Assembly (NCBI GenBank): GCA_002269645.1
Contig: NIVC01001090.1
Span: 5,084-69,083 of the forward strand
Origin: Macrostomum lignano
Lineage: Eukaryota
Length of the DNA stretch: 64,000 bases
Direction: 5' to 3'
The first letter of the stretch is position 1. Each line of letters starts with the position of its first letter. The notes under the pieces are model-generated. The model was not told where the DNA came from, made no database searches, and saw only the letters and a program-made list of their open reading frames with translations. The position numbers were made by a program, and so were the translations under genes. Shown in pieces: positions 31,487 to 55,701 of the stretch.

Positions 31487-31559
31487 ACTACTAAGGGCCG
31501 GCAGATCCGGGCGTTTTTGGAGGTGGGGTGGGTGTCAACCCACCTCGCTTCTCATTGGC

Positions 31560-32420: not shown

Positions 32421-32757
32421 AATATCCAGCCCAGGATATTCGAGACACGCCCCCAGAGCCAGGGCCGGGGATCCCAATGTACAGTGCGGGCAGAGTAACA
32501 TAGAGAAATTCAATTCCTCCCCAGGGCCGGGGGATCCCAATGTACAGTGCGGGCAGAGAGGAGTAACAGAGACCGCCCCAATGCACAGTGGAGGTAGCAG
32601 ACCGCATACAAAGAGAATTCTCCCCAGGGGAGCTTCCAAATAGGTTTTATTATCTCAAGTGCCGCGCAGACAGGGAAAATCACGTACAGGGAGAAAAAAC
32701 CGCAAACCCCAGTAAACCTCCAGCCGCTCCTCAGTGTTGTTTCATGCCGCCTCCTCC

Positions 32758-33441: not shown

Positions 33442-33553
33442 GTTGGAATCAGCAGACTATAGTATCAGGGCTAGGATTAGGGTTTGGCTCTCTAGAGGCT
33501 GGCTAGATTAGTTATATAGGGAGCCCCGCCGGGTGGCGCGAGCCAATAGGGAA

Positions 33554-34102: not shown

Positions 34103-34318
34103 GATTAGCAGCAGCAGCAGAGAGCTCTCCGACAGCCGCGCAGCGCTTTATATACCCCCAGATGGAGGGTGGGAGGGTGTGATTTTGGGGTGATTTTGAG
34201 TGATTCTGGTTGGTTTTTTGGTGATTTGGCCAATAATAGACGAGCTAAGCAGGTTTTTAGTATATATTCGGACCCCTAGAACAGGGGTAGAGAGATAATC
34301 CTTCTCTCTGTATGCAAA

Positions 34319-36177
34319 ATGGCTAAACGCAGCGCAGCATCGACTACTTTCCCAGCTGACAAGAGGCAACGTCTTTATGGTAAGTTTTAATTAATTTCTA
34401 TCCGGTTGTATATCAGTCTAGACGGGTTTTGAGTTGCTGCAGCAGGGAGCTTCTATGAATTGGCAGGGGCAGGAGCAAGAGAGGCGCGATAGAGAGTTGA
34501 TAAGAGCAGACTAGACAGGCGGGGGCTAACAAAGAGTTGAGGGGTTTACCGCTGTGACAGCTTCAGGCGCATGCGGGCTATAGAATTCAGAGTGCTGCGA
34601 CAGGGAGCTTACGAGTTTGAGTAGGGAGGGGGCGCAAACAAAGAGCAGGCAGGATGCGGCTAGGGTTAAAAAATTGCAGAGAATTTCAGCAGGAGGGTCT
34701 ACGCGCGAGGGATTATGAGCCAGGCGGGATAAAAAATGGTGGGCGCTCTGACAGCTGCAGGAGCATGCGGGAATTCAGAGTGCAGCAGCAGGGCATGCGA
34801 GTTTGAGTAGAGAGGGGGCGCAAACAAAGAGCAGGCCGGATAACAGCTGCGGGCTGGGGTTAAAAAAATTGCAGAGCATTTCAACAGGAGGGCCTGAGCG
34901 CAAGGGGTTATGCGTGAGCGCAAACAATGAGCCAGGCCAGATAAAAAATGGTGGGCGCTCTGACAGCTGCAGGAGCATGCGGGAATTCAGAGTGCTGCGA
35001 CAGGGAGCTTACGAGTTTGAGTAGGGAGGGTGCGCAAACAAAGAACCAGGCAGGATGCGGGCTAGGGTTAAAAAATTGCAGAGCGTTTCAGCAGCAGGGC
35101 TTGCTTGCGAGGGGTAGCGCAAACAAAGAGCCAGGCAGGATGCGGCTAGGGTTAAAAAAATTGCAGAGCGTTTCAGCAGCAGGGCTTGTGCGGGAGGAGT
35201 AGCGCAAACAATGAGCCAGGCCGGATGCGGCTAGGGTTAAAAAATTGCAGATGCGTCTCGGCAGGGGGGCATGCGTGCGAGGGGTTATGGGGGAGCGCTA
35301 ACAAAGAGCCAGGCGGGATGCGGCTGGGGTTAAAAAAATTGCAGAGCGTGTCGGTGGGAGGGCCTGAGCGCAAGGGGGGGGGGAGCGTGAACAATGAGTC
35401 GGTTGGAGTCTGATCCTGGGGTGCCACGAATTGACAGATTCTTCTGGTTTTTTATCTCCTTGTGTTTTTTCAGACGCGTTTGTCCCGCCTGCCCAACCTG
35501 AATTTGTTACCGGACCGGGTGAGTTATCCAGCCCCCCTATTCCCCAGGCAGACCCGGGCTGACTCACACTCCCCCTTCATTCCCCCTACAGGTTTTACGG
35601 CCCGGCTGGATAATCAGCGCGACCTGCCCAAGTTTAGGGCCAAGGGTGTGGAATATGTGGTAAAGTTGGATGGTACTAGCGACTTACGCGAGACATTTGC
35701 CAGTTTGCTCGAAGTATTCAAGCAGGATTTGGCTGGTGATGAATTTATGGCCGCGAAATTCGAGAGTGATAATATGCTCAAAGCAGCCCACACTCCCCCG
35801 GTGCGTGCGGCCCGCATGACAGCAGAGTTGTTGTTTAAGCACATTGACAAGATTGTGCAGTCAGACGCAAGCGTACTGTCGAGCAACTTTTCTATCCGGT
35901 TGCTAAAGGCCTGGGTGCCTCGAGGTGGATGTGCTCTCGAGAACAAGCATCTAGAAGAGAGGCACGCTTTTTCAAAGCACTATGTCCGCATCACCAACAC
36001 GGACAAGAGGTGCCTGCTGCGAGCTCTGGTCGTGGCCTGCGCCTATCTGCAATTTGTGGCCAAGCGCATCACCGAGGATGTGTGGCGCAGGATCAAGGCC
36101 AATTCACCCAAGCAGACTAAGCTGGTGACTGAGCTGCAAGTCGAAGCAGGCCTCTACACGGTAAGTTGTGCACTAAT
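34319..36177 (+). pseudogene. Left-arm duplicate of pPolB exons 1-3 (34319-34379, 35474-35518, 35592-36160), ending at the fold-back junction
   Basis: Mirror of 39948-38090; breaks 17 nt into intron 3. Confidence 0.75.
34560..35390. repeat. Composite tandem repeat in pPolB intron 1 (mirrored at about 38880-39710)
   Basis: GGGTTAAAAAATTGCAGA recurs at least six times within 80-200-bp units. Confidence 0.8.
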
Positions 36178-39100
36178 AGCGCTCAGTCTCCTCATAAATC
36201 GCCCGCATTGGCTGGTTCTTGAGCGGGTGCAGCACGTCGCCGTTGGGGAAGCACTTGGGACAGCCATGGAAGAAGCAGCCATGAAACTGCAGCACTGTCC
36301 TGGTCTCCGGGTCAAAGCCATCCACCTTACGGCCCATGGCGAAAGCCTCGCCGCCAGAATCGGCTGTCCGCAACCGGCCGCCAAACTCGGTTGCATTCAA
36401 ATGTGCCAGCCAGCAGCGCGCCTTGTGCGACTGTACATCGGACCGGCGGGAAATCACCCCAAGAGTGTTGGGCTCCATAAACTTGGTGGTGAAAACAGCC
36501 ATAGCCAAGCCCGCAATGGTGTTGGATTGGACAAATGCGTCCAGTCCGCAAATGTCCTTAATCAGGCGGGTGTACTTTAGACAGCCTTCCCGCAAAATTA
36601 ACGTGTCCTGCAGGCAATAGTCCAGGTACTCCTTATTGAAATTAAACACCTGTCCCTCCTGCTTGGCCAGCCAGTCAGCGATGGAGTCGTGCTGCTTATT
36701 CTTCTTCCCGCCGTACATATCAATTGAGCAGTAGGGACCTACGTACCCCCAGTTTTGTGGCTGATTGAACACGTGCGGGAAATCTCCTTTGGTCAGTTGG
36801 GTGCCCAAACCAAGCGCCTTTGGGAATTGCGCCAGACCAATAGGGATAAAGTTGAGGCTGTCCTTGAACGTGATCTTGTCGCACTTCATGTACATTAGGC
36901 GGCTGTTCTGGAAGATCACCTGCGGCTTCTTCTTGGCCAGTCCGTTGAGTAGGGCGCCGAGCAGGAGGAATGCGTCATACGCAGAGCCATTGTGCGCAAT
37001 TGCAATTGCCCCCTGCTTGAACACGCTAGTCAGCCAGCAGTAAAAGGCATCGATAGAGTGCAGTCCAACGGATACAAACTCTCGCATCCCACAGGCACAG
37101 TCATTGTGGGAGACACAGCTCGTAAAATCCAGCGCCAGATTGCGTCCCGCAATGCAATTGGCTGAGCTGTGCAACCCCCGCACACGCTGCAGCGGGGCCT
37201 GGGGAAGAGTTTGGGACACGCCTCGCAGGAGGTGGCAGCCGTAACCAAGTGTACCCGGTGCTGCTTGGTCCACGTACGTCTCGAAATCATAGTAAACGTA
37301 CGGGGCGCTAGACTCTTTGGCTTTGGGCGGGGTGACAAAGCACTCGTGGGTGGCCGTTTCGTCGTACTGCTTGCAGACTGGACACTTGGCGTAACCACAC
37401 TGATGCTCGGGGGGCTGGCCTACTTTCAGTTCTTCTAGATAGCCACACGTGCCGCAAACGTGGACTGAATCACAGCGCGATCTGCCCGCCTTATTCTTGC
37501 GCTTGTGATTCTCTAGGCACTGAGCATTATAGCAATTTAGCCCGCAATCATGGCATCTTACATATGCACGGTTGGCTTTGCAGTTGGAGCCCGGAGTCTT
37601 GCATGTACTGCAGGCATCAGCGCACTTGTGCTTCTCATAATTGCAATCGAAGGCCATCTCGCACTTGGCGCAGTAGTGATCGGAGCCGAAAAACGCAGGC
37701 AGCTTGGTGACCACATTAAAGTGCTGCTCGACCAGGTGCAGGTGCAGAATCTCGGTGCCAGGCAGGTTGAATATGCACGTGTTGGCCTCCTCTGCCCTGT
37801 ACACTCGTACACCAAAATCGTGGCCTGGATGCAGACGGTTCAGGGCCCGTATCGCCTCGGGCAGAACATCCACCCCAAAAGGACCGGCCTGCGAGACGAT
37901 TTGATGAGTCTGTGTGGAGGCAAAATATTTCTTTTAGTATTCCTTATCGTAAAAATTCTTATCAGAAAATATAGCTTTTAGTATTCCTTATCGTAAAAAT
38001 TCTTTTAGTAATCCATGAAAATACTAGAAACCAGAAACGAAATTCTTATCAGAAAATAAATCTTTTGGTATTCCCTGATACAGTGGAAAATTAGTGCACA
38101 ACTTACCGTGTAGAGGCCTGCTTCGACTTGCAGCTCAGTCACCAGCTTAGTCTGCTTGGGTGAATTGGCCTTGATCCTGCGCCACACATCCTCGGTGATG
38201 CGCTTGGCCACAAATTGCAGATAGGCGCAGGCCACGACCAGAGCTCGCAGCAGGCACCTCTTGTCCGTGTTGGTGATGCGGACATAGTGCTTTGAAAAAG
38301 CGTGCCTCTCTTCTAGATGCTTGTTCTCGAGAGCACATCCACCTCGAGGCACCCAGGCCTTTAGCAACCGGATAGAAAAGTTGCTCGACAGTACGCTTGC
38401 GTCTGACTGCACAATCTTGTCAATGTGCTTAAACAACAACTCTGCTGTCATGCGGGCCGCACGCACCGGGGGAGTGTGGGCTGCTTTGAGCATATTATCA
38501 CTCTCGAATTTCGCGGCCATAAATTCATCACCAGCCAAATCCTGCTTGAATACTTCGAGCAAACTGGCAAATGTCTCGCGTAAGTCGCTAGTACCATCCA
38601 ACTTTACCACATATTCCACACCCTTGGCCCTAAACTTGGGCAGGTCGCGCTGATTATCCAGCCGGGCCGTAAAACCTGTAGGGGGAATGAAGGGGGAGTG
38701 TGAGTCAGCCCGGGTCTGCCTGGGGAATAGGGGGGCTGGATAACTCACCCGGTCCGGTAACAAATTCAGGTTGGGCAGGCGGGACAAACGCGTCTGAAAA
38801 AACACAAGGAGATAAAAAACCAGAAGAATCTGTCAATTCGTGGCACCCCAGGATCAGACTCCAACCGACTCATTGTTCACGCTCCCCCCCCCCTTGCGCT
38901 CAGGCCCTCCCACCGACACGCTCTGCAATTTTTTTAACCCCAGCCGCATCCCGCCTGGCTCTTTGTTAGCGCTCCCCCATAACCCCTCGCACGCATGCCC
39001 CCCTGCCGAGACGCATCTGCAATTTTTTAACCCTAGCCGCATCCGGCCTGGCTCATTGTTTGCGCTACTCCTCCCGCACAAGCCCTGCTGCTGAAACGCT

Positions 39101-39948
39101 CTGCAATTTTTTTAACCCTAGCCGCATCCTGCCTGGCTCTTTGTTTGCGCTACCCCTCGCAAGCAAGCCCTGCTGCTGAAACGCTCTGCAATTTTTTAAC
39201 CCTAGCCCGCATCCTGCCTGGTTCTTTGTTTGCGCACCCTCCCTACTCAAACTCGTAAGCTCCCTGTCGCAGCACTCTGAATTCCCGCATGCTCCTGCAG
39301 CTGTCAGAGCGCCCACCATTTTTTATCTGGCCTGGCTCATTGTTTGCGCTCACGCATAACCCCTTGCGCTCAGGCCCTCCTGTTGAAATGCTCTGCAATT
39401 TTTTTAACCCCAGCCCGCAGCTGTTATCCGGCCTGCTCTTTGTTTGCGCCCCCTCTCTACTCAAACTCGCATGCCCTGCTGCTGCACTCTGAATTCCCGC
39501 ATGCTCCTGCAGCTGTCAGAGCGCCCACCATTTTTTATCCCGCCTGGCTCATAATCCCTCGCGCGTAGACCCTCCTGCTGAAATTCTCTGCAATTTTTTA
39601 ACCCTAGCCGCATCCTGCCTGCTCTTTGTTTGCGCCCCCTCCCTACTCAAACTCGTAAGCTCCCTGTCGCAGCACTCTGAATTCTATAGCCCGCATGCGC
39701 CTGAAGCTGTCACAGCGGTAAACCCCTCAACTCTTTGTTAGCCCCCGCCTGTCTAGTCTGCTCTTATCAACTCTCTATCGCGCCTCTCTTGCTCCTGCCC
39801 CTGCCAATTCATAGAAGCTCCCTGCTGCAGCAACTCAAAACCCGTCTAGACTGATATACAACCGGATAGAAATTAATTAAAACTTACCATAAAGACGTTG
39901 CCTCTTGTCAGCTGGGAAAGTAGTCGATGCTGCGCTGCGTTTAGCCAT
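36173..39948 (-). pseudogene. Protein-primed DNA polymerase B of element A, spliced and 3'-truncated; exons 39948-39888, 38793-38749, 38675-38107, 37909-36173
   Basis: N-terminal ITNTDKRCLLRALVVA, a Cys-rich region, ExoI YDFET, ExoII HNGSAYD, ExoIII YCLQD, KGDFPH and a VSR-like insert VDGFDPETRTVLQFHGCFFHGCPKC. Intron phases 1, 1, 0 are all compatible. Polymerase motifs A-C are absent; the stop is created at the junction. Confidence 0.85.
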
Positions 39949-40164
39949 TTTGCATACAGAGAGAAGGATTATCTCTCTACCCCTGTTCTAGGGGTCCGAA
40001 TATATACTAAAAACCTGCTTAGCTCGTCTATTATTGGCCAAATCACCAAAAAACCAACCAGAATCACTCAAAATCACCCCAAAATCACACCCTCCCACCC
40101 TCCATCTGGGGGTATATAAAGCGCTGCGCGGCTGTCGGAGAGCTCTCTGCTGCTGCTGCTAATC

Positions 40165-40713
40165 ATGTCTTCTTCTATCGCTCTATACGAAAACTTTGTG
40201 GCGCGGAAGCCCACATTTGAAACGGAGCATGACTTAATTGAAATCCGTCGGCTCTACACCGACGAAGCTGGAGTGTGGAAGGACGGCTTCCCAGCAATCT
40301 ATTTAAGCGAGGTCGAGTGGAAGAAGCTCGAAGCTGCACGCCCTGACCTGGAGGCTGCGGCACGTCTTCACGTGGACAAGAGAGTCGTGTTGGGCAGCTT
40401 CAAGGCGGCAGAAGCTTCACAGGGGAGGATTCGTTTGCGGCGCAATTGGCTTAATCGGGATCCAAAGTTCAATTGGCGCTACACAATTGAATTCACGCCG
40501 GAACTGTGGCGCCGGATGTTTGCCGCCCGTTTGGGCAAGCTCTTCAAACCCAAGGCCCCGCCGCCAGCCAAGCGCGCCAGGACCGATACCTCTCTGGTAG
40601 CCAGGACTGAGGAGGAGGAAGAAAATCTCCAGGATGTTCTCCAGGTTGTGGGTCTCAAACCCTACCAATTCCCGCCCTGGGAAAATCTGTTTGACGAGAG
40701 TCAGCGCTGGTAG
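40165..40713 (+). CDS. PC4-like ssDNA-binding-domain protein, 182 aa (right-arm copy)
   Basis: Same sequence as 33554-34102; TATATAAA at 40113-40120. Confidence 0.6.
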   Translation: MSSSIALYENFVARKPTFETEHDLIEIRRLYTDEAGVWKDGFPAIYLSEVEWKKLEAARPDLEAAARLHVDKRVVLGSFKAAEASQGRIRLRRNWLNRDPKFNWRYTIEFTPELWRRMFAARLGKLFKPKAPPPAKRARTDTSLVARTEEEEENLQDVLQVVGLKPYQFPPWENLFDESQRW

Positions 40714-40824
40714 TTCCCTATTGGCTCGCGCCACCCGCGGGGCTCCCTATATAACTAATCTAGCCAGCCTCTAGAGAGCCAAACCCTAATCCTAGCCCTG
40801 ATACTATAGTCTGCTGATTCCAAC

Positions 40825-41508
40825 ATGTCCCGCCGCCGAGCTCTATCCACCCTCTGGGATAAAAACCGCCCATCTGAAGAATTAGCCTCCCTCGACGGTG
40901 AAATACCCGAACATATAATCCCCATAGGCATAGAAAACGGCGGACTTGACTATCCTGAAAATTGGGGTGCTGATATAGCCTTATCTTGGGCTTTGTGGGC
41001 TATTACCTACGATAGCGACCCGGGATCTGAGATTTTCGACATCCCGTGGGGTAATAGCTACGATAGCGACACCGGGTCTGAGATTTTCGACCTCCCACCG
41101 CTGACTATCGGAGGGGGTGTGAACGCCGCCGCTGCCGACTCTGGTGCCTCTGCCGCTGCCGCCCCTGCCACCTCTGCCGCCGATGCCGACTCTGCCGCTG
41201 CCGACTCTGGTGTCTCAGCCTCTGCCGCCCCTGCTGCCGCTGCCGACTCTGGTGCGGCCTCCCCCGGTGTCTCTGCCTCTGCCGCCCCTGCTGCCGACTC
41301 TGGTGTCTCTGCCTCTGCCGCCACTGCTGCCGCTGCCGACTCTGGTGCTGCCTCCCCCGGTGTCTCTGCCTCTGCCGCCCCCACCTATGGTAAGATATTA
41401 CACTGTATACACAATTCGTCTTATCATATACAAAGCATATATTCTTTCTACATTAATTGTTTTAATTTCCCCATTGCAGTCGGCCGACTACTGATTCGAG
41501 ACCCTTGA
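40825..41508 (+). CDS. Hypothetical 227-aa Ala/Ser/Asp-repeat protein (right-arm copy)
   Basis: Same sequence as 32758-33441. Confidence 0.5.
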   Translation: MSRRRALSTLWDKNRPSEELASLDGEIPEHIIPIGIENGGLDYPENWGADIALSWALWAITYDSDPGSEIFDIPWGNSYDSDTGSEIFDLPPLTIGGGVNAAAADSGASAAAAPATSAADADSAAADSGVSASAAPAAAADSGAASPGVSASAAPAADSGVSASAATAAAADSGAASPGVSASAAPTYGKILHCIHNSSYHIQSIYSFYINCFNFPIAVGRLLIRDP

Positions 41509-43389
41509 GGAGGAGGCGGCATGAAACAACACTGAGGAGCGGCTGGAGGTTTACTGGGGTTTGCGGTTTTTTCTCCCTGTACGTGATTTTCCCTGTCTGC
41601 GCGGCACTTGAGATAATAAAACCTATTTGGAAGCTCCCCTGGGGAGAATTCTCTTTGTATGCGGTCTGCTACCTCCACTGTGCATTGGGGCGGTCTCTGT
41701 TACTCCTCTCTGCCCGCACTGTACATTGGGATCCCCCGGCCCTGGGGAGGAATTGAATTTCTCTATGTTACTCTGCCCGCACTGTACATTGGGATCCCCC
41801 GGCCCTGGCTCTGGGGGCGTGTCTCGAATATCCTGGGCTGGATATTTTACTTTGCACCTACATTATATGCTTAATTTTGCATGCATATGTTGTATTATAC
41901 TTAACTTCCAGTGTGTGTATTTTATCCTATGCATTGAAATTTGTGCCTGCGGGTTAATATGCAAAATGTTTAAAATCTGCCTACATTATATGCTATGTAA
42001 TTTTCCTGTATTATACTCAATTTGCACCTACATTTTGTGTATGTATGCACCTGCATTATACTGTGTGTATTTCCGCCTATGTTTTATTAGCGCCTACTAC
42101 ACTAATAATGCGATATGTACCTGCTTTGTCTATTTCTGTCAATATAATATGCACCTACATGGTGTGTTTTTTGCTGCTCATATGCATCAATATGTACATT
42201 TTAATATGCATTATGCACCATTATTTACACCTACCAATATGTTTTGCCTACTATTTTTATGTAAATATACACAATTTCACCTACTATAAGTAGTTTTCAC
42301 TAGCCTAATATCATTGACTACATATCTGTGTATGCATACATATCGGGAGAGTGTACTGGGGAGAGTGTACTGAGGAGAGTGTACACTCGGGGTGCCTGCG
42401 GCATGGGAGAGTGTACACTCGGATGCCTGCGGTTTGGGAGAGTGTACACTCGAGTGCCTGCGGTTTGGGAGAGTGGAGCGCCTGCGGCATGGGCGCCTGC
42501 TGCTCTGGAGGGAGGGCATACATATCGGGGTACATATCGGGAGTGCGCATACATGTCGGGAGGGTACCCCTGCGGCATGGGCGCCTGCGGCATACATATC
42601 GGGAGGGTCGCCTGCGGCTCGGGAGGGTGCACATATCGGGAGGGTGCAGTGCGCCTGCGGCATGGGCGCCTGATTGGCGCTTGGCGCCACGCGCCTGCGG
42701 CGCGCGCGCCAATGAGAAGCGAGGTGGGTTGACACCCACCCCACCTCCAAAAACGCCCGGATCTGCCGGCCCTTAGTAGTTACAGGAATTCCAACTACAC
42801 TGCACGGTACCCACAAATAATTCAAAAGAAGAAAAGATCCCAAGTCCGATCAACTGACCAACTTGTCCAAAAACGCATTTTCAGTATATTTCTAAACCAA
42901 GCGAATCAAAATATTCCCCGACTCTTCGTCCACGCCCCCCTTAAGTTTAAGGATCTCGGCGACGCACCCGCGGCGGAGCGCGCATGTATACCATTGTAAA
43001 GTTTGCCTCTTCTTCTCGGGTTCTCTAAGATGTTCCTAGAAAAATAAAACCCGCTGCTCCAGAAGAAGCTAGATAGCACCGCAGTACTACCTATCGATTT
43101 TTGCCTGAAAATGAACCTAAAACGTTGCCGTGACTTGGTAGGGTTGCTGCCACCTTGGTGTGCGGACTCGACGCGTCGGCAGAGTTGTCTATCCGTCACC
43201 TGAAAGAAAAATAACAAAGTCGCTCGGAGCAAAGGCAAATCTGAAAAATGTCTCGACAGTCGATCGTCTTAGTAGAATGCTGCTCGAACCTGAAAACCTG
43301 AAAACCTGAAATGAGAGAGGAGAGCTCGGAGGCAGCTCCGGTCGAGCCCAGGCAGGACGACACGATCTGGAGAAAATTGCTCGCAGATG

Positions 43390-44650
43390 CTCCGTATTTA
43401 TAGCCGAGCGGACCCCCAAAAGTCACGTGAGTTTCATGCGGTGAGCGCGTGAAACTTCCTTATTTGGGCATTGGAATCATGCGGGCGACGCGTGATCCAA
43501 GGCCAACTTCCAAATAAGGCAACCCTGTCACGCAGCAGTGGCGTGACTCAAGGTCAGTGGCCACGCACAGAGTGCGTGCACAGTCACGTGCTTAGTCTGT
43601 GCTAAAAATAGAATCGTGGGCGGATGAGTCATCCTGTTTACTCCCTCTAGGCAGCCCTTACACTCCGCGCAGGTGATGAGTCATCCTGCAACGCCTCCTC
43701 AGCGCGAGTGGGAAGACATTGAGTGTGGCTGCCCGCGCCCGCTCAGGCGATGAGTAATTGGGCAGTAAACACATAGGCCCAGCACAGGGTAACTCTCTCA
43801 CTAGATCAGGTGGACTGAGCTACTGTGCAGCGGATCACAGCACTCTTAGGGAAAGCTAGTGAATGCTGCTGAATAACCAGATAGCAGCCAGTCACTACAC
43901 CATCTTAAAACTATTCGCAGTCTCGTCCACCCGGAATCTGGCCACACTCTCAATGGACACGGAGCCGTCGGACCACAAGTGGCGGCAGTAGCCAGCACCG
44001 TCCAAAGTAGTGCAGCGGCGGTCGGATGGCAGTCCCCACGCCGTCGCGGGTACCCCCGTCCCGTGTCGTCCGAGTAGATTAACTCCCTCCGCCCGGCACA
44101 CCGTCCTGATTTCATCAATCCGCTCGATTTTATGTCAGTGTGGACTCAATGTGGGGCGGGGGCCGCGGCTCGAGGATGAAGGGGAAAAGTCCAGCTGCGC
44201 CCCTCCCCGCCCTCATGCGCCCAAGAAACCGAAGCCTGCAGCTACGACCAGTTGGGCGACCGGCTGGACTTTCACTTAGCGAGATAGTAATACAATAGAG
44301 CACCTGGCCCCACGTGGGGCGGCCTGCGGACTCTCAACTTAAGGAGACAGTATTACAATAGAGCAGAGCTCGCGTGCGTTGGCCGGAAAGCACCATTATT
44401 TTCGCCAAACAAACTTATTTAATCAGCCTGCCGAACGGATTTGTTTGTCCATGGGGCGCGGGCGTGGGCCGGAAAGCACCATTATTTTCGCCAGGAACTG
44501 CCCAACTTATTTAACAAGCCTGCGGAACGGATTTGTTTGTCAATGGGCAGCTGTTCCTTCGTTATTCAAGCCCACCCCCCGAAACTGCCACGTGGCACAA
44601 AAAGCCAGATGGCGCCCCTCCCCACCAAATCCTGCTCTATAAAAGAAAGT
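43390..44650. promoter_or_regulatory. Divergent promoter region with two TATA boxes, AP-1 sites and E-boxes
   Basis: TATAAATA on - (43395-43402) and TATAAAAG on + (44638-44645); TGA(C/G)TCA at 43544, 43625, 43677; CACGTG at 43424, 43585, 44311, 44589; an 85-bp direct duplication at about 44374-44547. Confidence 0.55.
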
Positions 44651-44738: not shown

Positions 44739-45912
44739 ATGACCGCCTATCCCGCCGAAACAGTCCTGACGCTGCGCCAACTCACTGACGGAGCAAGACT
44801 ACACATTGGCGACGAGTCAACAAACGGCGAGTGCTTCTTCCGATCTGTGACGTGGACTCGGCCGGGGGAGAAGAAACGCTACCCGATCATACTGCAGACG
44901 GAGACCCCGCTGGAGCTGCTGAAAGGGATCAACGAGCGAGGAAACCACCACGCCGAACAATTGACCGCGTATCAGGCCGACCATCGCGAGGAAATCGGAC
45001 TGAATTTTCTCGGCGAAGATTTCTGCAAGCCACTGTTCAATCTACTGAGGTGAGTTACCCCCCCCCCCCCCGACAACTTTTCAGGATTCACTAGCCCCTT
45101 GGTGTCAGTTAAAATCAACACATAAACTCCAATTTAATTCCAGAACTGTGGAACGAACAATCGCACAGGAGCTCGAGGAGAAGCCGGACTCTAAAGCGCT
45201 GCTGCGCGTGACGCGACAATCCTCACGCGGTATAACGGGTGGGGCCTCCGCGGACTACGCGCCAATGCACTGGATTCCAATCAAGCCAAACTTCAGCTGT
45301 CTCGGCTTTCGCACAGACCAGGCCACCCACCCGGACGGTCGAGAGGCAGCCCTGAGCGAATTCAAAGGACTGACGGGACGCTACCACCTTTCAATTCAAG
45401 TCACGTCGCTATTCTGTCCACGGACCGGAACCGGCTGGAGGCTCTCTTTCGCTCTACGCTCTATTGTGCTGATGGAGAGCAACCCAAGCCGGCTGGCCGT
45501 CTTCGCGGGAGTCCGACAACAGCTAGTCAAGAAGAGGGAGCCAGATACAGACGAAAAACCAGAAGCCGGCTCTACAATGGAGAGGAAGCCGCCCAAGCGG
45601 CACCAGTCCAGTTCTGAAGAGGAAGCCGAACCTAGCACAAAGAAGAAGCCACCGACCAAGAAGCCGGCGACCCCTCGCCGTCCTAATGCGCCCAAGAAAC
45701 CGAAGCCGCCTGCAGCTACGCAGAGCAACGACCGGCTGGCCCCAACTGCTGAAGGTTTGCCCTCGGCCAAGGCACTGGTGAGCCCTACCGGGTCAACTAT
45801 CTCAACGTCAACTGGCGGAACTCGGGTGGCCTTTAAAGACCTGGCTTACCAACGTCACCTGGCGGCGGCCGCGGAGCAGTCCACGTCCAGCGACTCTGAA
45901 GCTGACTGCTGA
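44739..45912 (+). CDS. Spliced ORF (44739-45049, 45144-45912; about 359 aa), putative OB-fold ssDNA-binding protein with a Lys/Pro/Ser-rich tail
   Basis: TATA box, good ATG context and a phase-2 intron AG|GTGAGT...TTCCAG|A. Segments PIILQTETP and GRYHLSIQVTSLF...WRLSFALRSIVL recall T7 gp2.5-type viral SSBs (inference). Confidence 0.6.
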
Positions 45913-46051
45913 ATCCAAATCCTAAATCTGATATTCAAATTTTTAAACAACGCTTGTCGATAAGAAATACATTGGCCACCCAGGTTCCGCCAGGAAAATT
46001 TCTATATTGTGGGTGACATCTCTATTGAGCCTTTGTTTTTTCTTCTTTCAG

Positions 46052-46981
46052 CGCTTGGTGCTAGTCATTTTTGGTGCCGCACTGAAAATCTCTCCTGGAG
46101 AAAAGCTTTGCATGCACGAGACTGAGATAGCTTTAGCTCGAAAGTCATATTCGTGCAAGGTTTTTAAAGCGAGACCTACAATGTGCAAATTTAAATTTGC
46201 GGATTTAACCATTCAGCTTTATCCCAACGGGAAGCTGACAATTTTTTGCCGCAATATGAATGTGGACGTGGGATCGATTTTACAGTTTGTTAACGAAATT
46301 ACTATTTACAAACTGGATTTCGATTCTGTCCACGTTCAAACTTCTACAATGGTTGGTCAAGTTCAGTTTCCCGCAAGAAACAGCTTCCACTATTTAAAAA
46401 GCTGTGTCGGAAACTATGAGGACTTTAGGGCAACCTATGATGCAGAACTTTTTCCACAGGCAATCAGTTTAAGACAGTCAAAAACTCCCAGACTTTTTTG
46501 CAACGTCTTTCATACTGGAAAGATTGTCGCAATGGGAGCAAAAAATGAGACCGAAGTAAACCTCTTAACTCGGTCCGTTAATGCATTGCTTGCTATGCTA
46601 CTGATAGCAGTACTATTGGCAAAAAAATCCAGCCATGGCCCGGATCTACATTCTGGAGGGGAACCTGGCGGCAGGCAAAACAACGCTGCTAAGAAACCTG
46701 GCCCTGAACTCGCGGTTGGAGAAATGGGAACCACAGATTCTCTGGGCCAAGGAGCCGGTTCAGGCCTTCACCTCACACCCGAAACTGCCGGCAGAAACGA
46801 ACCCGCTGGAGGAATTCCACCGAGGATCTCTATCGGCACTCGGTTTTCAAGTCGATGCGAGCCATTGTCTGCTTCAGCGGAACAAGAACATGAGAGAGCT
46901 TCTGCTCTCACCGGAGCCGGATCAACCAGAGTACGACATTCTGGTGATGGAAAGGCTCATGGCGTCGGCTCACGCATTTAA
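46052..46981 (+). CDS. Divergent TATA-binding-protein-like (TBP-fold) protein
   Basis: Two TBP-like repeats: YSCKVFKARPTMCKFKFADLTIQLYPNGKLTIF and YDAELFPQAISLRQSKTPRLFCNVFHTGKIVAMGAKNETEV (compare TBP YEPELFPGLIYR...IFVSGKVVLTGAK). The start is uncertain (acceptor at 46051, first ATG 46112); the 3' tail overlaps the kinase gene. Confidence 0.7.
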   Translation, partial: RLVLVIFGAALKISPGEKLCMHETEIALARKSYSCKVFKARPTMCKFKFADLTIQLYPNGKLTIFCRNMNVDVGSILQFVNEITIYKLDFDSVHVQTSTMVGQVQFPARNSFHYLKSCVGNYEDFRATYDAELFPQAISLRQSKTPRLFCNVFHTGKIVAMGAKNETEVNLLTRSVNALLAMLLIAVLLAKKSSHGPDLHSGGEPGGRQNNAAKKPGPELAVGEMGTTDSLGQGAGSGLHLTPETAGRNEPAGGIPPRISIGTRFSSRCEPLSASAEQEHERASALTGAGSTRVRHSGDGKAHGVGSRI

Positions 46982-47306
46982 CTCGGTTCTAACAGAGGCG
47001 GGGCGGCTAACAACGCTGGAGAAGGCAATCTGCTGCGCACAGGTGGAGACATTGCAGGCGATCAAACCAAGCGAGGCCACCCTGATCTACCTCGACATTG
47101 AGCCAAGCCTGGCACTAGAGCGGATCCGGCAACGCGGCCGAAAAGGAGAATCCGAAGTGACGCTCGACTATCTGAACCGGCTGCACGAAGCAATGGTGTC
47201 CTATTTCTGTCTCTATCGGGCGGTCCACCGAGTGACGGTCGGACCATCTACAACACCAAGCGACGTGGCTCGGCTGGTTGGGCGCATTGTGCGAGGACTA
47301 AACTAA
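46635..47306 (+). CDS. Deoxynucleoside kinase family protein (223 aa)
   Basis: P-loop EGNLAAGKTT, EPV, FQ, ER motif (VMERL), LIYLD and the lid RIRQRGRKGE...YLNRLHE. Confidence 0.92.
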   Translation: MARIYILEGNLAAGKTTLLRNLALNSRLEKWEPQILWAKEPVQAFTSHPKLPAETNPLEEFHRGSLSALGFQVDASHCLLQRNKNMRELLLSPEPDQPEYDILVMERLMASAHAFNSVLTEAGRLTTLEKAICCAQVETLQAIKPSEATLIYLDIEPSLALERIRQRGRKGESEVTLDYLNRLHEAMVSYFCLYRAVHRVTVGPSTTPSDVARLVGRIVRGLN

Positions 47307-48299
47307 CTAATCCAAATCCGAATGAAATATATCTAAAACACAGCTTTTGCTGTAAAAATCTTTCCGATCGAGGAAAGAGCCTGAGATCTATACAGTCTCG
47401 TGAATTATTTCTACGTCTTTTGACGTAGACGAGAGACCAAAACAATTACAGTCAGCTAAAGTTAATCATGTAGCTCTCTATTATTAGACATGCCCTCGCG
47501 TTTGGTTTCGCGAGTGTTTTCGCCGATTGCTATTGGAAACAACGTCCCCCTGCTGATTGCAAAAAGCATTCTTCAACACAATTAATTCTATTGGCTGTTG
47601 TTGATGCTGCTATTTACTTGCCTGCTAGCAGACGGTTTGGTTTTGTCTCTATGTCGCCAATAATTTGAGGCCGTGCCCACCCCGGTGTCTGGTGTAAACT
47701 GACGACTGGGTTTTTTCGACCATTGGCAAGTAGCTCCTTGAGGCTGCATAATGTGGATTTTTCTTTCCACAGCTGGGTGTCTAGGCCGACTCTGGGTCAT
47801 AGCACCATTCAGGTCCACCTGGCCCAGTGCCTTAAATGCAGCCAGACCAGTAAAGGAGCGCTAGGTACTGACCCAATATTCGAGGTCTGCATTCAGACCC
47901 AATATTTCGAGAACTGCGCTTGCATCCATTGGTTGAATTACGGTGTGCATAGGGACGCTCACTAGGAGATGCACCATCACCACCACCACCACCACCTATT
48001 TCTGGCTGGCTGGTTGGCTGCGTCTCCTTGCGTGTTGGCACTCCAGAAATATTTTGGTTGGGTGCGGTGCGGATAAAATAATGAGGGATAAAAAAAAGTC
48101 AGCTTAAGTTAATCGTGTCATCACCCTCTAAAATTATTGAAGACACGCCCTCGTGTTTGGGGTCACGAGTACTGCTACTACTATTTGTAGTAACGTCCCC
48201 CTGCTGACAAAAAAAATTATTTTTTTAAAGTCTATTTTTATTACTACGCTACTGCCTACACCGTTGGCTAATAAATAAAAATCATTTTCCTAATTCCAG

Positions 48300-48840
48300 C
48301 TATTGATACAGTGTGTTGTGTGCAAGCGCGTGTTTCGTTCTCGCGCCGAGTTGCACATTCACACACATCAATTCTGTTTCGTTCCTGAACAACTACTGGA
48401 TGGGCCGATTCGGGAACTGACTGCCGACAATCCTCCTGATGGGTGGAATGTTGAATTGCGCGAGTCAGCTCACCGAGGACTGGTCAACTATTTGGTGTTT
48501 ATACCCGACCAGCAGGAGGGCGGTGATGCGGAGCGTCTGTTGTCACCCGGCAGCTTGTTGGCCCAATTGCGCGACTCGATTTACCGCCTATTCACACAGC
48601 TGGGTTCACCCTCGTTACTACTGCGAACTTGTATGCACCTAAAAGTGAGAATGGCTAGACCGAGAACCACTACTGCCACCACCGCTGAGGAAGAAGTGAT
48701 ATTGCATACTTCAACACCAACGTTGCAACAATTCGCTTTGACAACCACAACAACAACAGCGAGCCACAGCAAACGTGGCTCTTATCGCGCGATGCCTACA
48801 ATGATTGGTTTGAATTGGTTTTAAACGAACTGGTGAGCAA
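48300..48840 (+). pseudogene. C2H2 finger plus a region resembling a Maverick pPolB N-terminus; frameshifted near 48750 and interrupted after 48840
   Basis: CVVCKRVFRSRAELHIHTHQF, then ESAHRG...MHLKVRMAR...EEVILHTS. An alternative frame continues DWFELVLNELVSK into a consensus donor AAG|GTGAGT. Confidence 0.5.
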
Positions 48841-48844
48841 GGTG

Positions 48845-48944
48845 AGTAGTAGTATGTTGTAAGGGGCTGCGCCACACTTGATTGCTCGGGCGCATTGCGC
48901 GCCAGCTCGCTGGATGACTCAGCCCCTTACAACATACTACTACT
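48845..48944. repeat. 100-bp palindrome with perfect 25-bp arms starting (AGT)3
   Basis: AGTAGTAGTATGTTGTAAGGGGCTG (48845-48869) and its reverse complement (48920-48944), with a 50-nt loop. Confidence 0.9.
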
Positions 48945-49466
48945 ACCAGGGGGTCATTGATTCAAGTGGGGTGTGATAAACAAAATATATATATAAATAT
49001 ACATATATCTGTGAGTGAGGGTGTTGAGGGTGAGGGCATGTGGGGGCATTGGCATGTGGAATATTTCTCAGAACACAGAATTTCCGAAATTTTTATACTT
49101 TTAAAAAGGGGGGGGTGCCCTCGCCCTCATGCCCTCACTCATTTTGAAAATCACTAAAAATAACTGAAAAATGACTAAAAACAGGCGAAAATGGTCTGAA
49201 AACAGCGATTTTTTGTGATTTTCAAAAATTTTGAAAAAGTGCAATTTTCACGGTTCCAGCTCTGAAACCATGAGAAAAGTTGGATTTACGGGTCAATTTA
49301 ATGCGATTTCAGGTATATACAAAATGAAAGTGTCATCCAATTCAACGATAGTAAATTTTATATATATATAAAATGGCCTTCAGTAAACCATTATTTCTAG
49401 GAAACGCTTTAGATATTCAGTCAGCTATAGACATAATTGACAATTAGGCATAATCGCCATATAAAA

Positions 49467-50216
49467 ATGAATGATAAAAATGAACGCATCTATCCTGTGG
49501 TTGAGCTGCATGAAGCAGATTTGAGGGAGCGGGACTATTTCAATCAGAGAAAGGGTGAAATCAAAGGCAGTATTGAATGCATTACGAAAGATCTTACAAT
49601 TTATAGCAAAAAGGTAAAAAAGTACAAACGACAAAGTAGCAGGATAAATTGGATCAACATTGTGACAGGAAATGTAAGTCTCTTGGCTGCTACAGGAATT
49701 GGCATAGCAACATCGATACTGACATTGAATCCCTTAGTCATTGGAGTAGTAATCGGGGCAATGAGTGGTTTTGAAGCTGTAAAATCCACGTCGTTGTTTG
49801 CAACTGTGAAAATGCATTGCCAAAAGCAGAAGGCAAAATACATTTTTCTCAGAGATCTGGCAAATCAATACAGAGAGAGATTGTATACTTACTCCCAAAA
49901 AGCAGTTGATGATTATAGATTAACTCTTGAAGAGGTTCAAGCAGCTGCTGCAATTTATTCAGAATACAGAGAGAAAAGAGACCAATTGTTAGACGCCTGT
50001 GTTGCGCCTGAAGAAGTTAACCGTTCGGAAGTCGTTGATAAAATCCTCAAAGAGAGTAGACTTGGTCATTCAGCGAAGGAAAAAATTAAAAAGGAACTGC
50101 TGGAGAAAGATCTGAGAGAAAAATTGGGTCTAGCTGATAAGCCAAAAGAGTACTCGGCAACACTCAATCTTCAATCAAATGCTCCAAGTGCGCCCCCTAT
50201 GCTTGAGTCTGTTTAA
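49467..50216 (+). CDS. Maverick accessory membrane protein (249 aa)
   Basis: A basic helix (KKVKKYKR), a long hydrophobic Gly-rich segment and KAVDDYRLTLEE resemble a common Polinton accessory ORF; ends in PSAPP. Confidence 0.6.
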   Translation: MNDKNERIYPVVELHEADLRERDYFNQRKGEIKGSIECITKDLTIYSKKVKKYKRQSSRINWINIVTGNVSLLAATGIGIATSILTLNPLVIGVVIGAMSGFEAVKSTSLFATVKMHCQKQKAKYIFLRDLANQYRERLYTYSQKAVDDYRLTLEEVQAAAAIYSEYREKRDQLLDACVAPEEVNRSEVVDKILKESRLGHSAKEKIKKELLEKDLREKLGLADKPKEYSATLNLQSNAPSAPPMLESV

Positions 50217-50231
50217 TTTTTTTTCTTAAAA

Positions 50232-53200
50232 ATGGAAAGGAAAATACCAGCGGCCTCTTATGAATATGATCTCGACTCCGTTGAAGAAATTCGCGGTTTA
50301 ATCTCCCCAACTCTTTCCAAACATTTGATGGCCAGAGATTCAATAAAATACAGAATTTCCTTTGTTGCAGAATTTTATAAAGGAACTACCGAAAGTTGGA
50401 TTGAGTTCCAATATCATTCAAAGTATCGAACTTTGTTAAATCTGCTTAAAGTTGAAGATAGTATTGAAAGTACAATAAGGGATGTTCTGGATGAATTTGA
50501 TGAATGGAAGGATAGTTTTAATGAAAGGGATCGAAATATTATTTTGTTAAGTTAGTAAAGATTATGTTGAAAGTTGTTGGCATTAATCAGTTGAAAGGAG
50601 GAACTTATATTTCAATTCCAATTAAATCAAACGCATTAGTAAATGTTAAGAACACTAAAGACAATAGGTGCTTTCTCTAGTCTATTTTAGCAAAGCTCCA
50701 TCCTGTGAAGGAACATAGATATAGAGTTGGTAAGTATACACAGTATATAAATGAAATAAACTTAGGAGACGTTAAATTTCCAGTGGACATTCGAGATATC
50801 TCTGAGATTGAAAAGTTGAACAGCCTCCATATAAATGTGTTTGGATTGAGGGATATAAATACTAAAGAGTCAATATATTCTATTCGTCTGACAGAAGATT
50901 ACGACAACCCCGATGTTATTGATTTACTACTTGTTGAAAATCATTATTGCTTAATAACAGACTTGTGTTTATTCCTCACGTCCCAAAATTACAACAGGGT
51001 TTTACTTTGTCGAAAGTGTCTTCAAGTTAAATACTCCCAGGATGCACTGGATAATCATAAAGCAATCTGTACTGACTTCAAAGTGTCAATTGAAGTTTCA
51101 AAGATTGATAAGAGGATATTAAAGTTTAAAAACTACCACATGAGTGTAAGAAAACCATTTGTGTTTTATGCAATATTAGATTATGTAACGATGGATGATA
51201 AATCACTAGAGCTATCACAATGGACACTTTTTACTAGTTCCGACTATGAGGACATTATAAAATCAAATATTATTTCAAATACTACAGTGGAATCATTCGT
51301 TGAAACCGTAATCAAAAAGTTTGAGCATATAAAAAATGAAATGGATAAATATAAACATCCAAGATTAAGTGATCTCGAAGAGACTGATTACAAAGCGGCA
51401 GAACAATATTTTCTCTGCTCAAGGCCATTTGTAAATAGTAAAAAAATTCGAGAGCATAATCACTACAATGGTAAATATCGCGGCGCAGCATGTCAATCAT
51501 GTAATACCAAGGAGGCGAATCAAACAGTGCCATTCGTTCTCTTGAATGAATCTGGAAAAGATCTAAACTATTTGATAGTTCCATTAACACGAATAAAGAA
51601 TACAGCGTATAAATTGGATTTCATTTCTAAAACATCGGAAGACCATGTTGCAATTAAGTGGGGGAATTATACCAGTGGTGTTGTGTTTTTAGATGGATCT
51701 AGGTTTTTGGAACCACCATTTACACTCTCTGAAGAAGAAATAAAATATTTGCCACCCAGTGATACAACAGCAGTAATTAGAAAGATTTACTCATTTGTCA
51801 ATGCTTTTGAGAAGTTTCGATCAACATTTTTGAACTACTTCAAGATAGATCCTGCGTATTGCTTTTCCCTTTCTGGATTATCGTGGGCATGTGGGTTGAA
51901 ATATACTAATGTGGAATTGGAATTACTTGGTGATAAAGATATGATATCCATGGTAGAAAGTGGTATTCGCGGCGGTTTCTCCGGAGTTCTTGGAGATCGA
52001 TATAAAAAAATGAACAATAAGTATTTAGAAAATTATGACAGTAATTCTGAATCGTCATACATGTTATACTTGGACAAGAATAATTTATATGGTGAAGCAA
52101 TGACGAAAAATCTTCCTGTGGGAGATTTTAAGTTTGAAAATGATTTAGAGTATCACAAGAATATTCCTAATGACAGGGGTTGTTTTCTTGAAGTTGACCT
52201 TGAATATACAGAAGAATGTAAGAAAGCTACAAGTAAATATCCACTGGCTCCTGAGAAACGAACAACTAGATTTGAGGATTTATCTGACATACAGAAGCAA
52301 TACCTCGAAGTCGAAAAGAAAAAGTTTGTTCAATCCAAGTTGATGTTGACATTTTACAACAAGGAGAAATATGTTTTACATCACAGACTACTTGAGTTTT
52401 ATGAGAAGATGGGCATGCGAGTTACGAGAGTTTATAGAATTCTTTCATTCAAAGAGTCAAACTGGTTGAGTAAATACATCGAATTTAATACCAGGTAGAG
52501 AATGGAAGCAAAAACTAAATTTGAGAAAGATCTGTGGAAACTACTAAACAACTCATTCTACGGTAAAACAATCGAAAATGTAAAGAATAGGTCGAACTTT
52601 CATCTTGTAGCTGAAGAAAAAACTGCAAGGCGTTATTTTTCCAAACCAAATTTCAAAGATTTCATTATGTTTAGTGAGAATGCAGTTGGTATCCAAATGT
52701 ACAAAAAGACAATTGCGTGTGACAAGCCAATTTATTTAGGAATGGCCATTCTGGATTATGCAAAAATGCTAATGTACGATTGCTATTAAAATGTTATTGA
52801 GAAGAATTGGAACAACTGTCAATTACACTATTCTGATTGTGATTCGTTGATATTCTCAGTGATTACTCAGGATGTTTATGAGGATCTTGAAAAAGTTAAA
52901 GAACACTTAGACACATCGGATTATCCAAGAGAGCATCCACTATACTCCGAAACGAACAAGAAAGTCATTGGAAAGTTGAAAGATGAAATTAATGGCTCAA
53001 TAATTTCCGAAGCTGTATTCCTGCGGTCAAAAGAGTATGCTTTCACTACAGTTTCAGGAGAGTGTGTTACGATCAAGGGAGTTGATAAAAGCAGTACAAA
53101 TATAAAGTTTGAAACATTTAAAAACATACTATAGACAGATTACAAAGATATTCAAAGAGGTAGAGTAAGTATGACTGTATCTGAAAAAAATAAAATATTT

Positions 53201-53293
53201 ATTCGTGAGATTATGAAACAAACAATGAGTCCGTTAGATGATAAAATATATTATTTGGATCCTATCAGATCTATTCCTCATCAGCCAATGTAA
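50232..53293 (+). pseudogene. Protein-primed DNA polymerase B of element B, inactivated
   Basis: NTKDNRCFL*SILAKLHP, an HNH-like EHNHYNGKYRGAACQSCN, motif A YLDKNNLYG, motif B KLLNNSFYGK, motif C YSDCDS and a C-terminal SPLDDK. One frameshift near 50550 and in-frame stops at 50678, 52496, 52787 and 53132. Confidence 0.92.
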
Positions 53294-55206
53294 TCTCATT
53301 GATAACATCTTCGTTTATTTTTTTCGTGCACTGTAGCAACACATTTCTAGTTTCTTGCTGTTTACCATCTATCCTACGCCTATATCTATCCTTATAATAC
53401 TTACAATAGTCATTGTGATTCTTGAAGAAATCTGTTATGTATTGTTGTTGGAATTCACGTTTCTCACGTTGGGCTAGAGTCCTATAGTATTCACTCTCTG
53501 TTGCGGCAGTGTAAATTTCTCTAATAAGCATAAATGTTTTTTCCTCAGTTTCTAAAAATTCATAATTCTCTTCAATGAAGTGAGAAAACCAATTATAATT
53601 TTGTATGAATTCATTAGTGTTTTCAATTACGCTTTTCGATCGATATATTTCACCCTTTGTTTGCTTGAAAATTTCTAGTAGGTTTTTCATCTCAGCAAAC
53701 TTATATTTATTCTTAAATTCCTCGGTTTTAAGATATGAATCGGCTTTATAAATGTGTTTCGCATGATCAATGATGTCGGTATCTGTTGTATATTTACATG
53801 GGTAATTAATATTTATAATTCGTCTTTTTTCTGCATCTCCAATATTTTGTCTAAAGTCAGGCTTGTTGTTGCATTCGACTATTAGGGTTGCGTGTAAAAC
53901 GACATTACACTGGCTTGAATATAAAGTTCTAGCTTGAATAACTCCTCCACCAGTTAGTAATTTTATTGATGCATTGTTCAAGACACCGCTTACTTCTTGA
54001 CTGATAACCAACCTCTTTTTATTAATTTGTGCTAGGGCTGGTTGTGGCCTGTCTATTCTTATTGGTGAATTCAAAACATCAGGACTCAGTGGTGCTGCAT
54101 AATCAGATCCTAGAGTTCTAAGAAGTAGGTTGTCCTCAACCCCCTTGCCATTTCCACCAGCGCCATCAAACATTATAAAGTTTTCAACATTTTTGCCCAT
54201 TAGAGCTGTGGTTATAACGGATTCCCAACTCTTTCTATTTTCTGGATCGGGATGAATTTGGTTATGCAGATTAACAATGAAGCCATAGTAGTAATCACTC
54301 ACTCCAAGTACATCCGAGTAATTATATCCCACCGATTTAGTAACGTAATCGTCATATCTATACGCGCGAAACTCACCTGTAATGAGGTCGTATACTCCAT
54401 CATCAAACCCTAGCAAATTCCATTGCGTGTCAAATTCAATTTCATTGTTAGTAAACCTCTCTTTGAGCAAAGTAGTTACCTGTTTGAGTTTGTTGGCTCC
54501 TTGTATTGAATTTACATTCTCCATTGTACTCTGTAGTTTCTTTTCAAGTACTTTTAACTTCTCTTTATCATCAGCCGCCTTCTTAATTGCAATTTCGAGT
54601 CTAGTCTTTCGGTGGTTTAACTCACCGCTAACAAGTTCTGATATTTAAAGAAATATGTCATTTATACTACTTAGTTCTCTCCACTTATCATCATTAAAAT
54701 AGTAAATACCATCGCTATTGTAAATTATATTATTCTTCTGATATTCATAAACAAAATTGGTTATGTTAACGTCAGTGAAATTATCATCAAGAAACTCAAT
54801 CCTACCATAATAATCATATTTGCTTTTCCATTCCTTATATTTGTTATAGTTTTCTTCACTTCCCCATTTCTTTAGTGTACCGATAGTAAGTCTGTCCTGT
54901 GCATCAGCAGAGCTGGTATTGGTGCTATTCCACACATTTTTACATGATTCGGAATCGAACTTATCATAATTTACTTTTGACCAATCAGTGAATACTTTGT
55001 ACATTTCATCACCACTGCCTATGTCGCGGAGTATAAGTGCTACCTTGTACCAAGAATCATAGTCTTGGTTTTTGTGTTGTATTATACTTAACAACTTTGA
55101 AACTCCTTCACAACTAGGTGGTGGAACGGTGCTTTTTAGTGCCTGTTTATCGGGTTCTTGGTTTTCTTTTTTATCCTGTGGCTTTATTAATCTATTTATC
55201 TCATCA
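53271..55206 (-). pseudogene. D5-like primase-helicase, 3' part (PriCT-like domain plus SF3 helicase)
   Basis: YDSWYKVAL...FTDWSK (PriCT-2-like), LLGFDDGVYDL, Walker A GAGGNGKG, LTGGGVIQARTLY, ECNNKP and RRIININY; one in-frame TAA at 54645-54647. Confidence 0.88.
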
Positions 55207-55701
55207 TTAAACCGCGGGGAAAGAAACGAGGCAAGACAAGGGATGGCGCGAAACGGAACCTCTGCTGGTCGAAAAAAAAATGGCAGCCGATGAATTATTT
55301 ATTTCTTGCGAAAGATTTAATAGCCGAATGAGAAAAAAAGCTAAAAAAAATTCTGAGCAAACACGAACGCACGGCGAACAAGCGGGGGACCGGACTAAAT
55401 AAGAAATCAAGCTAGCACCCCCGCGACCCCCCGCCCCCCCGCAGCACACGCAACCCCGCACGCACCCGCCCCAGCCAAGCGAGCCCCTCCCCCGCAGTTT
55501 AAACGCCCTTACCACCAACACAGTGGCAAGGGTAACATTAAACCGCGGGGAAAGGAACGAGGCAAGACAAGGGATGGCGCGAAACGGAACCTCCAAACCC
55601 AAACCGGAGAACGGACAGAAACGGAGACAGTAGTAAAAGAAAAGACACCGGGAAACTAAAAGAGCGGAGAAGCTAACGCCAGCACAGACACAGTTAGACA
55701 G

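Follow-up and report, generated by a model that had tools for sequence, protein, structure and literature searches.

A spliced gene, a TBP-like gene and a deoxynucleoside kinase gene in the left arm of a Macrostomum lignano Maverick

Results

The genes lie in the left arm of a Maverick invaded by two others

We analysed a stretch of 64,000 nucleotides of Macrostomum lignano DNA (referred to as the window), in which positions 44739-47306 hold packed, co-oriented frames behind a TATA promoter, as the first-pass annotation had described. The ORF scan lists four ATG frames on the + strand (44739-45053, 45265-45912, 46112-46981 and 46635-47306); the three ORFs of that annotation are real as frames, with the correction that the first two ATG frames are exons of a single gene. 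The TATA box, TATAAAAG (44638-44645, +), stands 101 nt 5' of the first ATG, and in all six families of related elements described below this distance is 54-102 nt. Gene 1, putatively SSB-like, consists of exon 1 (44739-45049), a phase-2 GT..AG intron (45050-45143) and exon 2 (45144-45912), which comprises a conserved core, a basic linker and a Ser/acidic tail; the frame left after splicing is 359 codons long and free of internal stops. Within exon 2 lies a candidate second donor, GTRAGY after KxL in phase 0 (45778-45783). Further on, a pyrimidine tract with a phase-0 acceptor (46029-46051) abuts a TBP-like domain of two repeats that has no ATG at its start (46052-46600; the open frame extends to 46981), followed by a deoxynucleoside kinase (dNK) gene with its own ATG (46635-47306) and by an acceptor, ending at 48299, with a broken 5' piece of the gene for a protein-primed family B polymerase, pPolB (48288-48844, 94% to the copy on contig C2529). 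All of these features are on the + strand.

The module had been placed between two Maverick-type elements. The flanking Mavericks turn out to have inserted into the element to which the genes belong; these genes are almost certainly the left arm of a third Maverick invaded by both neighbours. The owner's left terminus, AGTAGT with the first part of the left TIR (31215-31486, +), matches both ends of the C2529 copy at 93%. An 11.3-kb palindromic Maverick derivative with 4.7-kb arms (31487-42780), outside the module, then interrupts the owner's left repeat between two copies of TACAGG, a 6-bp duplication, and the left end resumes at 42781-44126 (+), including a 909-bp piece missing from the C2529 copy. 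On the other side, a Maverick of another, abundant family (terminus AGTAGT; 48845-64000), likewise outside the module, begins within the owner's pPolB, which starts at 48300. The right part of the owner element is beyond view because the contig ends with the window.

The inserted elements have features of their own. The arms of the palindromic derivative are 100% complementary, its ends are unusual (ACTACT...AGTAGT) and a truncated pPolB lies mid-element; an assembly fold-back is the less likely cause of this palindrome because the 6-bp duplication flanks it on both sides. At 33557-34102 (-), and in mirror image at 40165-40713 (+), it carries an ORF that is weakly PC4-like (Pfam E 0.11, PDB E 0.11) and is a possible ssDNA-binding gene. 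The 909-bp piece is a repeat insertion (42990-43898) that is skipped in contigs of three transcript runs and whose ends are not GT..AG. The Maverick at 48845-64000 holds a D5-type helicase, an endonuclease VII-pPolB piece, an ORF with an F5/8 domain and, near 55300-60500, a DIRS-type retroelement insert; its family has 40 scored copies of its end, many of them as inverted pairs about 18 kb apart. Elsewhere in the window we observed host-type ORFs for an HSP20 (6749-7252), a C2H2 zinc finger (11611-12927) and an FkbM methyltransferase (23141-24262).

Full-length copies in six families carry the module together with core Maverick genes

The genome-wide search for further copies and their neighbours, which the first-pass annotation had suggested, returned at least 50 matches for dNK, at least 74 for the TBP-like gene and at least 64 for gene 1 exon 2, figures that are lower bounds and not copy numbers. 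The order gene 1, TBP-like gene, pPolB was found in 11 of 11 contigs examined, with dNK in between in six of them. These contigs represent six families, A (the window type) to F, with TBP-like proteins 34-64% identical to that of the window. The copy nearest to the window (G000:C2529:17164-35936; 18,773 bp) starts with AGTAGT, ends with ACTACT and is flanked on both sides by CAGGTC, a 6-bp duplication; the reading frames of its gene 1 and its pPolB are broken. Its pPolB matches PF03175 (E 1e-20), and 3' of this gene lie a dUTPase (E 1e-33), a PLA2-like gene, an A32-like ATPase, an integrase with a chromodomain and a protease-like gene. The integrase match (rve, E 8e-6) is under the Pfam cut-off, with the chromodomain at E 4e-5; the packaging ATPase match is weak (Pox_A32, E 0.006), as is that of the adenain-like protease (E 0.04), which aligns with relatives passing the C5 or C48 cut-offs and has invariant HW, E, Q and CG. 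Conserved ORFs of 440 and 330 aa, common to other Mavericks, gave no match in Pfam or the PDB; we take them to be candidates for double and single jelly-roll capsid proteins.

Four copies were measured, at 17.5-21.1 kb. The Maverick hallmark of TIRs with AGT-repeat ends is joined by an exact 6-bp duplication in two of the four (C2529 and C1975); the C1680 and C362 copies have TIRs and unequal flanks. The reading of the locus as the early replication/transcription module of a Polinton is borne out by the gene order, the full-length TIR copies and the core Maverick genes. No large virus is called for because the element size is ordinary, and the idea of an undescribed large virus or an enlarged Polinton is set aside, the copies having the usual Maverick genes.

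Between families A and B, dN/dS is 0.10-0.15 for all three genes (0.14 for gene 1 exon 1), which places gene 1, the TBP-like gene and dNK under purifying selection; between the window and the C2529 copy it is 0.17 for dNK and 0.40 and 0.51 for the other two genes, from few changes. Individual families differ in make-up. Family C (G000 C424:410738-425500 and about 25 similar copies) has no dNK; four of the five copies examined have lost most of pPolB and retain gene 1, the TBP-like gene, integrase and capsid-type genes, and two copies are 99.6% identical across 13 kb. In family F (G000 C362:549871-551289) the TBP-like gene and dNK are fused in a single frame. A family B copy (G000 C272:383965-399965) is a palindrome in which a reversed left arm replaces the right half, like the derivative inserted in the window.

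The module encodes a kinase, a TBP-like saddle and a conserved protein of putative SSB type

The kinase gene matches PF01712 with E 1e-19, above the Pfam cut-off, and its catalytic motifs (P-loop, the EP motif with the catalytic Glu, FQ, ER and the Arg-rich lid) are present in the window and in all four families aligned. The assignment as a deoxynucleoside kinase is thereby confirmed, its activity being predicted from these motifs. Among host kinases, the best exon reaches about 23% identity. A kinase 96% identical to that of the window bears a Macrostomum source label, in agreement with the host.

The TBP-like call likewise stands. The frame matches TBP (Pfam E 1e-7), and its structural model (pLDDT 91) aligns with human TBP along the full length (TM 0.72; Foldseek E 5e-9), with TM scores of 0.66-0.73 to cellular TBP and 0.5-0.69 to the best viral models; the modelled fold is the two-repeat TBP saddle. 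The canonical TATA-reading residues of TBP are four Phe and two Asn. In comparison with host TBP, all six families have F or Y at the four wedge positions, an acidic C-terminal stirrup D-x-E-x-F-P is invariant among them, and both DNA-reading asparagines are replaced in all six. Judged by these residues, the protein is TBP-like and not a TBP orthologue. A word-based search with the TBP-like sequence of the window gave no matches.

The TBP-like coding region starts at 46052, 20 codons 5' of the first ATG (46112). Its frame does overlap that of dNK, by 347 nt, as had been noted; within the overlap pN is 0.37 and pS 0.35 in the TBP frame, as against 0.27 and 0.77 in the dNK frame. Since pN and pS are about equal in the TBP frame there, the overlap is an unselected run-on. 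In families A and B the TBP frame extends over dNK without a stop; the possibility that a frameshift or a small intron joins the two genes there was rejected, as inspection by eye revealed no conserved signal.

Gene 1 is conserved in sequence across the families, with its intron at the same position in all six. SSBs of the T7 and giant-virus type have an OB fold and an acidic C-terminal tail. The SSB fold proposed in the first-pass annotation could not be confirmed: comparisons with the PDB, Pfam, PHROGs, DUF2738 and T7 gp2.5 were all blank, one of these profile searches finding nothing in control genomes either, and a structural model of exon 2 on its own was poor (pLDDT 47; best fold-search Z 2.6). 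By language-model features (Atlas), the neighbours of gene 1 are viral (Nucleocytoviricota) clusters at 0.93-0.94, and DUF2738, a family linked to SSBs, is found on 10-15% of their members. The Atlas neighbourhood is the one lead to an SSB, an identity that is unproven for gene 1.

The TBP-like protein belongs to a clade found in many Mavericks

A profile search of 1.84 billion representatives returned 134 matches, four of them strong. A metagenome search, which used the alignment of one related TBP-like subgroup, yielded 109 pattern matches, among which 20 loci were confirmed; 16 of the 20 have at least one core Maverick gene and 12 at least two, and none was seen on two short contigs. In a tree of 60 rows, with long branches, 14 of the 20 metagenome loci included and giant-virus TBP left out, the window lineage groups with the metagenome TBP-like proteins (39 rows, 100/99), apart from host TBP, host TRF2-like, cellular-type rows and a second genome lineage. 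In a viral contig collection a weak match led to two phage-like loci, both unrelated (one was examined), and there were no other finds; nine natural frames read from their first Met were absent, by exact look-up, from the collection queried.

The second lineage consists of Mavericks with a TBP-like gene of their own that has an ATG, is 22-25% identical, faces pPolB and branches apart (G000 C130:904518-905081, and on C529, C100, C114, C219, C84, C3017, C38 and C2498). Capsid-type and ATPase genes adjoin it at 9 of 10 loci examined, and this type appears to account for most of the 150 scored TBP matches. In the metagenome Mavericks (L110-L129) the TBP-like gene is often overlapped by an upstream ORF and followed by one that is presumably PZ-like. 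A PC4-like identity for the ORF ahead of these TBP-like genes was a by-eye likeness that the searches did not support.

These data bear on the idea that what lies between two Mavericks is part of an independent large DNA virus or a set of genes captured from the host. TBP homologues had been called typical of large DNA viruses; giant-virus TBP homologues do match the TBP-like model and the Atlas neighbours of gene 1 are Nucleocytoviricota clusters, but such genes also occur in the second genome lineage, in the metagenome Mavericks and, by a figure legend, in MELD viruses. The genes of the module are always within TIR-bounded elements of 15-21 kb and adjoin pPolB; this, the low identity of the host kinases and the separation of the TBP-like protein from host TBP and TRF2-like proteins in the tree all argue against the idea. 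They are multi-copy and no orthologues of host genes. A separate virus or host capture thus has next to no probability, and the full-length element copies rule it out.

Gene 1 is spliced and the lineage is expressed

Transcripts were assessed in 4 of 24 listed runs, from three studies, as assembled contigs whose RNA nature was guessed and is supported by the GT..AG joint. This joint, removing 45050-45143, occurs in all four runs. Two of the runs have contigs that start at 44682 and 44687, just 3' of the TATA box. Neither a joint from 45777 to 46052 nor one from 45777 to 48300 was found in the four runs, the contigs of which drop rare forms. At 25 of 27 differences checked (248 further differences lie outside this check) the transcripts match the C2529-type copy and not the window copy. 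The RNA check that had been proposed thus verifies intron 1 and shows the lineage to be expressed, with the transcripts assigned to a C2529-type copy; expression is not attributable to the window copy because the transcripts match the other type.

Two gene frames begin at predicted splice acceptors

The TBP-like gene starts at an acceptor in 6 of 6 families and pPolB in 4 of 6. In nine of nine copies YAG and a pyrimidine tract (13-18 pyrimidines of 20 in each of the six families) stand directly 5' of TBP-like residue 1, an invariant Arg. Five of the six families have no in-frame ATG before this acceptor; family D is the exception, its in-frame ATG 11 codons upstream counting against a splice start. 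In A and B no Met occurs before residue 21, and in C, E and F none before about residue 44; both positions lie past the first strand of the model, which residues 2-11 form. In two relatives from other assemblies, too, Gln precedes the first column. It is very probable that the TBP-like start is obtained by some splice. An alternative without a second splice is unlikely; in it, translation would begin at a non-AUG codon or an internal Met of a read-through transcript, or else separate promoters would drive the individual genes. This alternative would agree with contigs of two runs that read through both second-splice sites unspliced (45142-46764), with the invariance of Met44 and with the in-frame ATG of family D, yet a start at Met21 or Met44 would delete the first strand or strands of a confidently modelled saddle, and both the constraint on codons 1-42 (pN 0.26 vs pS 0.62) and the strength of the pyrimidine tract in all six families speak against it.

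A donor for such a splice is present in the tail of gene 1. In 9 of 10 copies, and in all six families, a phase-0 GTRAGY, which matches the phase of the TBP-like acceptor, follows KxL 42-50 codons before the gene 1 stop; in the tenth a frame break lies upstream of the donor, whose letters are unchanged. The third base of the Val codon at this site is a purine in 6 of 6 families and that of the Leu codon is variable. Codon shuffles produce such a donor in 3-33% of trials per family (0.03-0.33), odds that overstate the case for it, given the kinship of the families and the chance that KxLVS is conserved as a motif of the protein. The predicted splice, spanning 271-619 nt, would place 315 gene 1 codons in front of the TBP-like domain, and we give this cis fusion an even chance of being the main route to the TBP start. 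In its favour, PMC8629364 describes trans-splicing as prevailing at acceptors that lack a cis donor upstream. Just 5' of the donor, all six families have a P-x-x-K-x-L peptide (45760-45777 in the window), which presumably resembles a cyclin-docking motif.

A rival route would be an operon in which the message is cut after gene 1 and a host spliced leader ending in AUG is trans-spliced onto the acceptors, starting both the TBP-like protein and the polymerase; we regard this as a close rival, though less likely than not. The leader, operons and leader AUG of flatworms are treated in the accessible parts of PMC8629364, PMC9851317 and PMC5730564, and the leader AUG is reported there as initiator in flatworm host genes (PMC9851317, citing Cheng 2006). 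In the genome there are 33 occurrences of the host leader end with a GT donor attached, and 0 of the reversed control. Families A, B, E and F have TTCCAG|CC at the start of pPolB, where C and D have ATG|CC in that column; this exact ATG/CAG swap would suit a leader more than a fusion. Of 59 related TBP-like proteins, chosen from 182 by a motif and length filter, 11 have Met exactly at the leader-Met position and 46 have it 0-4 residues before the column. The distance from the gene 1 stop to the TBP-like acceptor, 139-490 nt, is below the 1-kb operon gap threshold in the available text of PMC8629364. Contigs of two runs stop at 45977 and 46011, and one contig (run X4, record 14, in a run without upstream cover) starts at 48302 with 25 non-fitting letters. 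A short cis joint might account for these letters. About 30 letters are shown by the single junction contig listed that ends at a cis branch, and because some 23 are seen at pPolB the leader is slightly favoured there, as a weak hint. Against the leader, there is no loose end at 46052 among those listed, the conserved tail donor would be left without a partner, and a fusion too must join at the domain start. The supplementary file of PMC5816591 gave no match for trans-splice sites for these genes.

Discussion

Taken as a whole, we favour, by little more than an even judgement, an early unit sorted by splicing in which the TBP-like start comes from a splice out of the gene 1 tail. The arm would likely be one early Pol II transcription unit placed ahead of the polymerase. 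Its gene 1 message loses intron 1, a joint that is observed; if the second splice were not used, the product would be the gene 1 protein with its acidic tail, and if it were used, a fusion protein of 315 gene 1 codons and the TBP-like domain. For strand-displacement synthesis, the kinase and the dUTPase further downstream would provide dNTPs and reduce dUTP, and the displaced strand may be coated by the gene 1 product. The TBP-like domain, its specificity altered, may bind AT-rich DNA at promoters or ends of the element and bend it. The kinase and polymerase messages probably need a new 5' end, for which the host spliced leader would be the simplest source since families C and D keep their own ATG at pPolB. 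A broader proposal, of a Maverick operon dependent on host trans-splicing, with the leader AUG starting polymerase and TBP-like protein, cis fusion also possible, and a widespread, little described TBP-like clade tuning Pol II or bending ends, is tentative and somewhat more doubtful than probable.

New here are the intron, the start-less TBP-like and polymerase genes and this gene set in a Maverick of ordinary size. The expression of Maverick genes is little described, and the present lineage is expressed, with an observed intron, in a laboratory flatworm. With either start mechanism, ORF-based annotation of Polintons would truncate start-less frames or miss them. A TBP-like clade common to many Mavericks bears on the source of the basal transcription factors of large DNA viruses and, if the proposed role is true, would give Mavericks a means of tuning Pol II transcription or of bending their ends. 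Should the leader start be true, the AUG of a flatworm leader would be the start codon of the element's DNA polymerase and TBP-like protein.

The arrangement parallels the adenovirus E2 unit, in which one early promoter drives a DNA-binding protein first and the protein-primed polymerase later, with the polymerase start supplied by an upstream exon; adenovirus differs in using host DNA-bending factors and has no TBP-like gene or integrase. With cellular TBP/TRF2 and giant-virus TBP homologues the TBP-like protein shares the two-repeat saddle, four aromatic wedges and an acidic stirrup, and it differs from them in its 18-20% identity, its replaced asparagines and its separate long branch. Alpha-adintovirus-type Mavericks with PLA2X (accessible text of PMC8502044; PMC8097293) share the AGTAGT...ACTACT ends, the 6-bp duplication, a size of 15-21 kb, pPolB, an rve integrase with chromodomain, an A32-like ATPase, a protease, a PLA2-like gene and accessory genes upstream of pPolB; unlike them, this element has TBP-like, dNK and dUTPase genes in one arm and all its genes on one strand. 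Intact vertebrate Mavericks are intronless according to the available part of PMC8097293, a described trait rather than a strict criterion, and the element described here departs from it with a spliced intron and two start-less genes. Among MELD viruses, a TBP label has already been given to a gene of a midsize pPolB element, in the Figure 5 legend of PMC8502044, with a dUTPase in the Figure 6 legend; in the accessible text the TBP label stands in a figure legend only, in the section on non-animal datasets, without analysis, splicing ('splic' does not occur) or dNK, and the supplementary maps may show TBP labels in animal elements. Our literature search, with subscription papers mostly outside its coverage, found no report of animal Mavericks with TBP-like, dNK or spliced genes, and term look-ups in the available text of PMC10748475, PMC11161782 and bioRxiv 2026.06.19.733378 gave nothing relevant. 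The flatworm leader-initiated ORFs in the accessible part of PMC9851317 likewise have an in-frame acceptor at the first coding residue and a leader ending in AUG; they are reported for host genes, whereas here the candidate is in a virus-like element.
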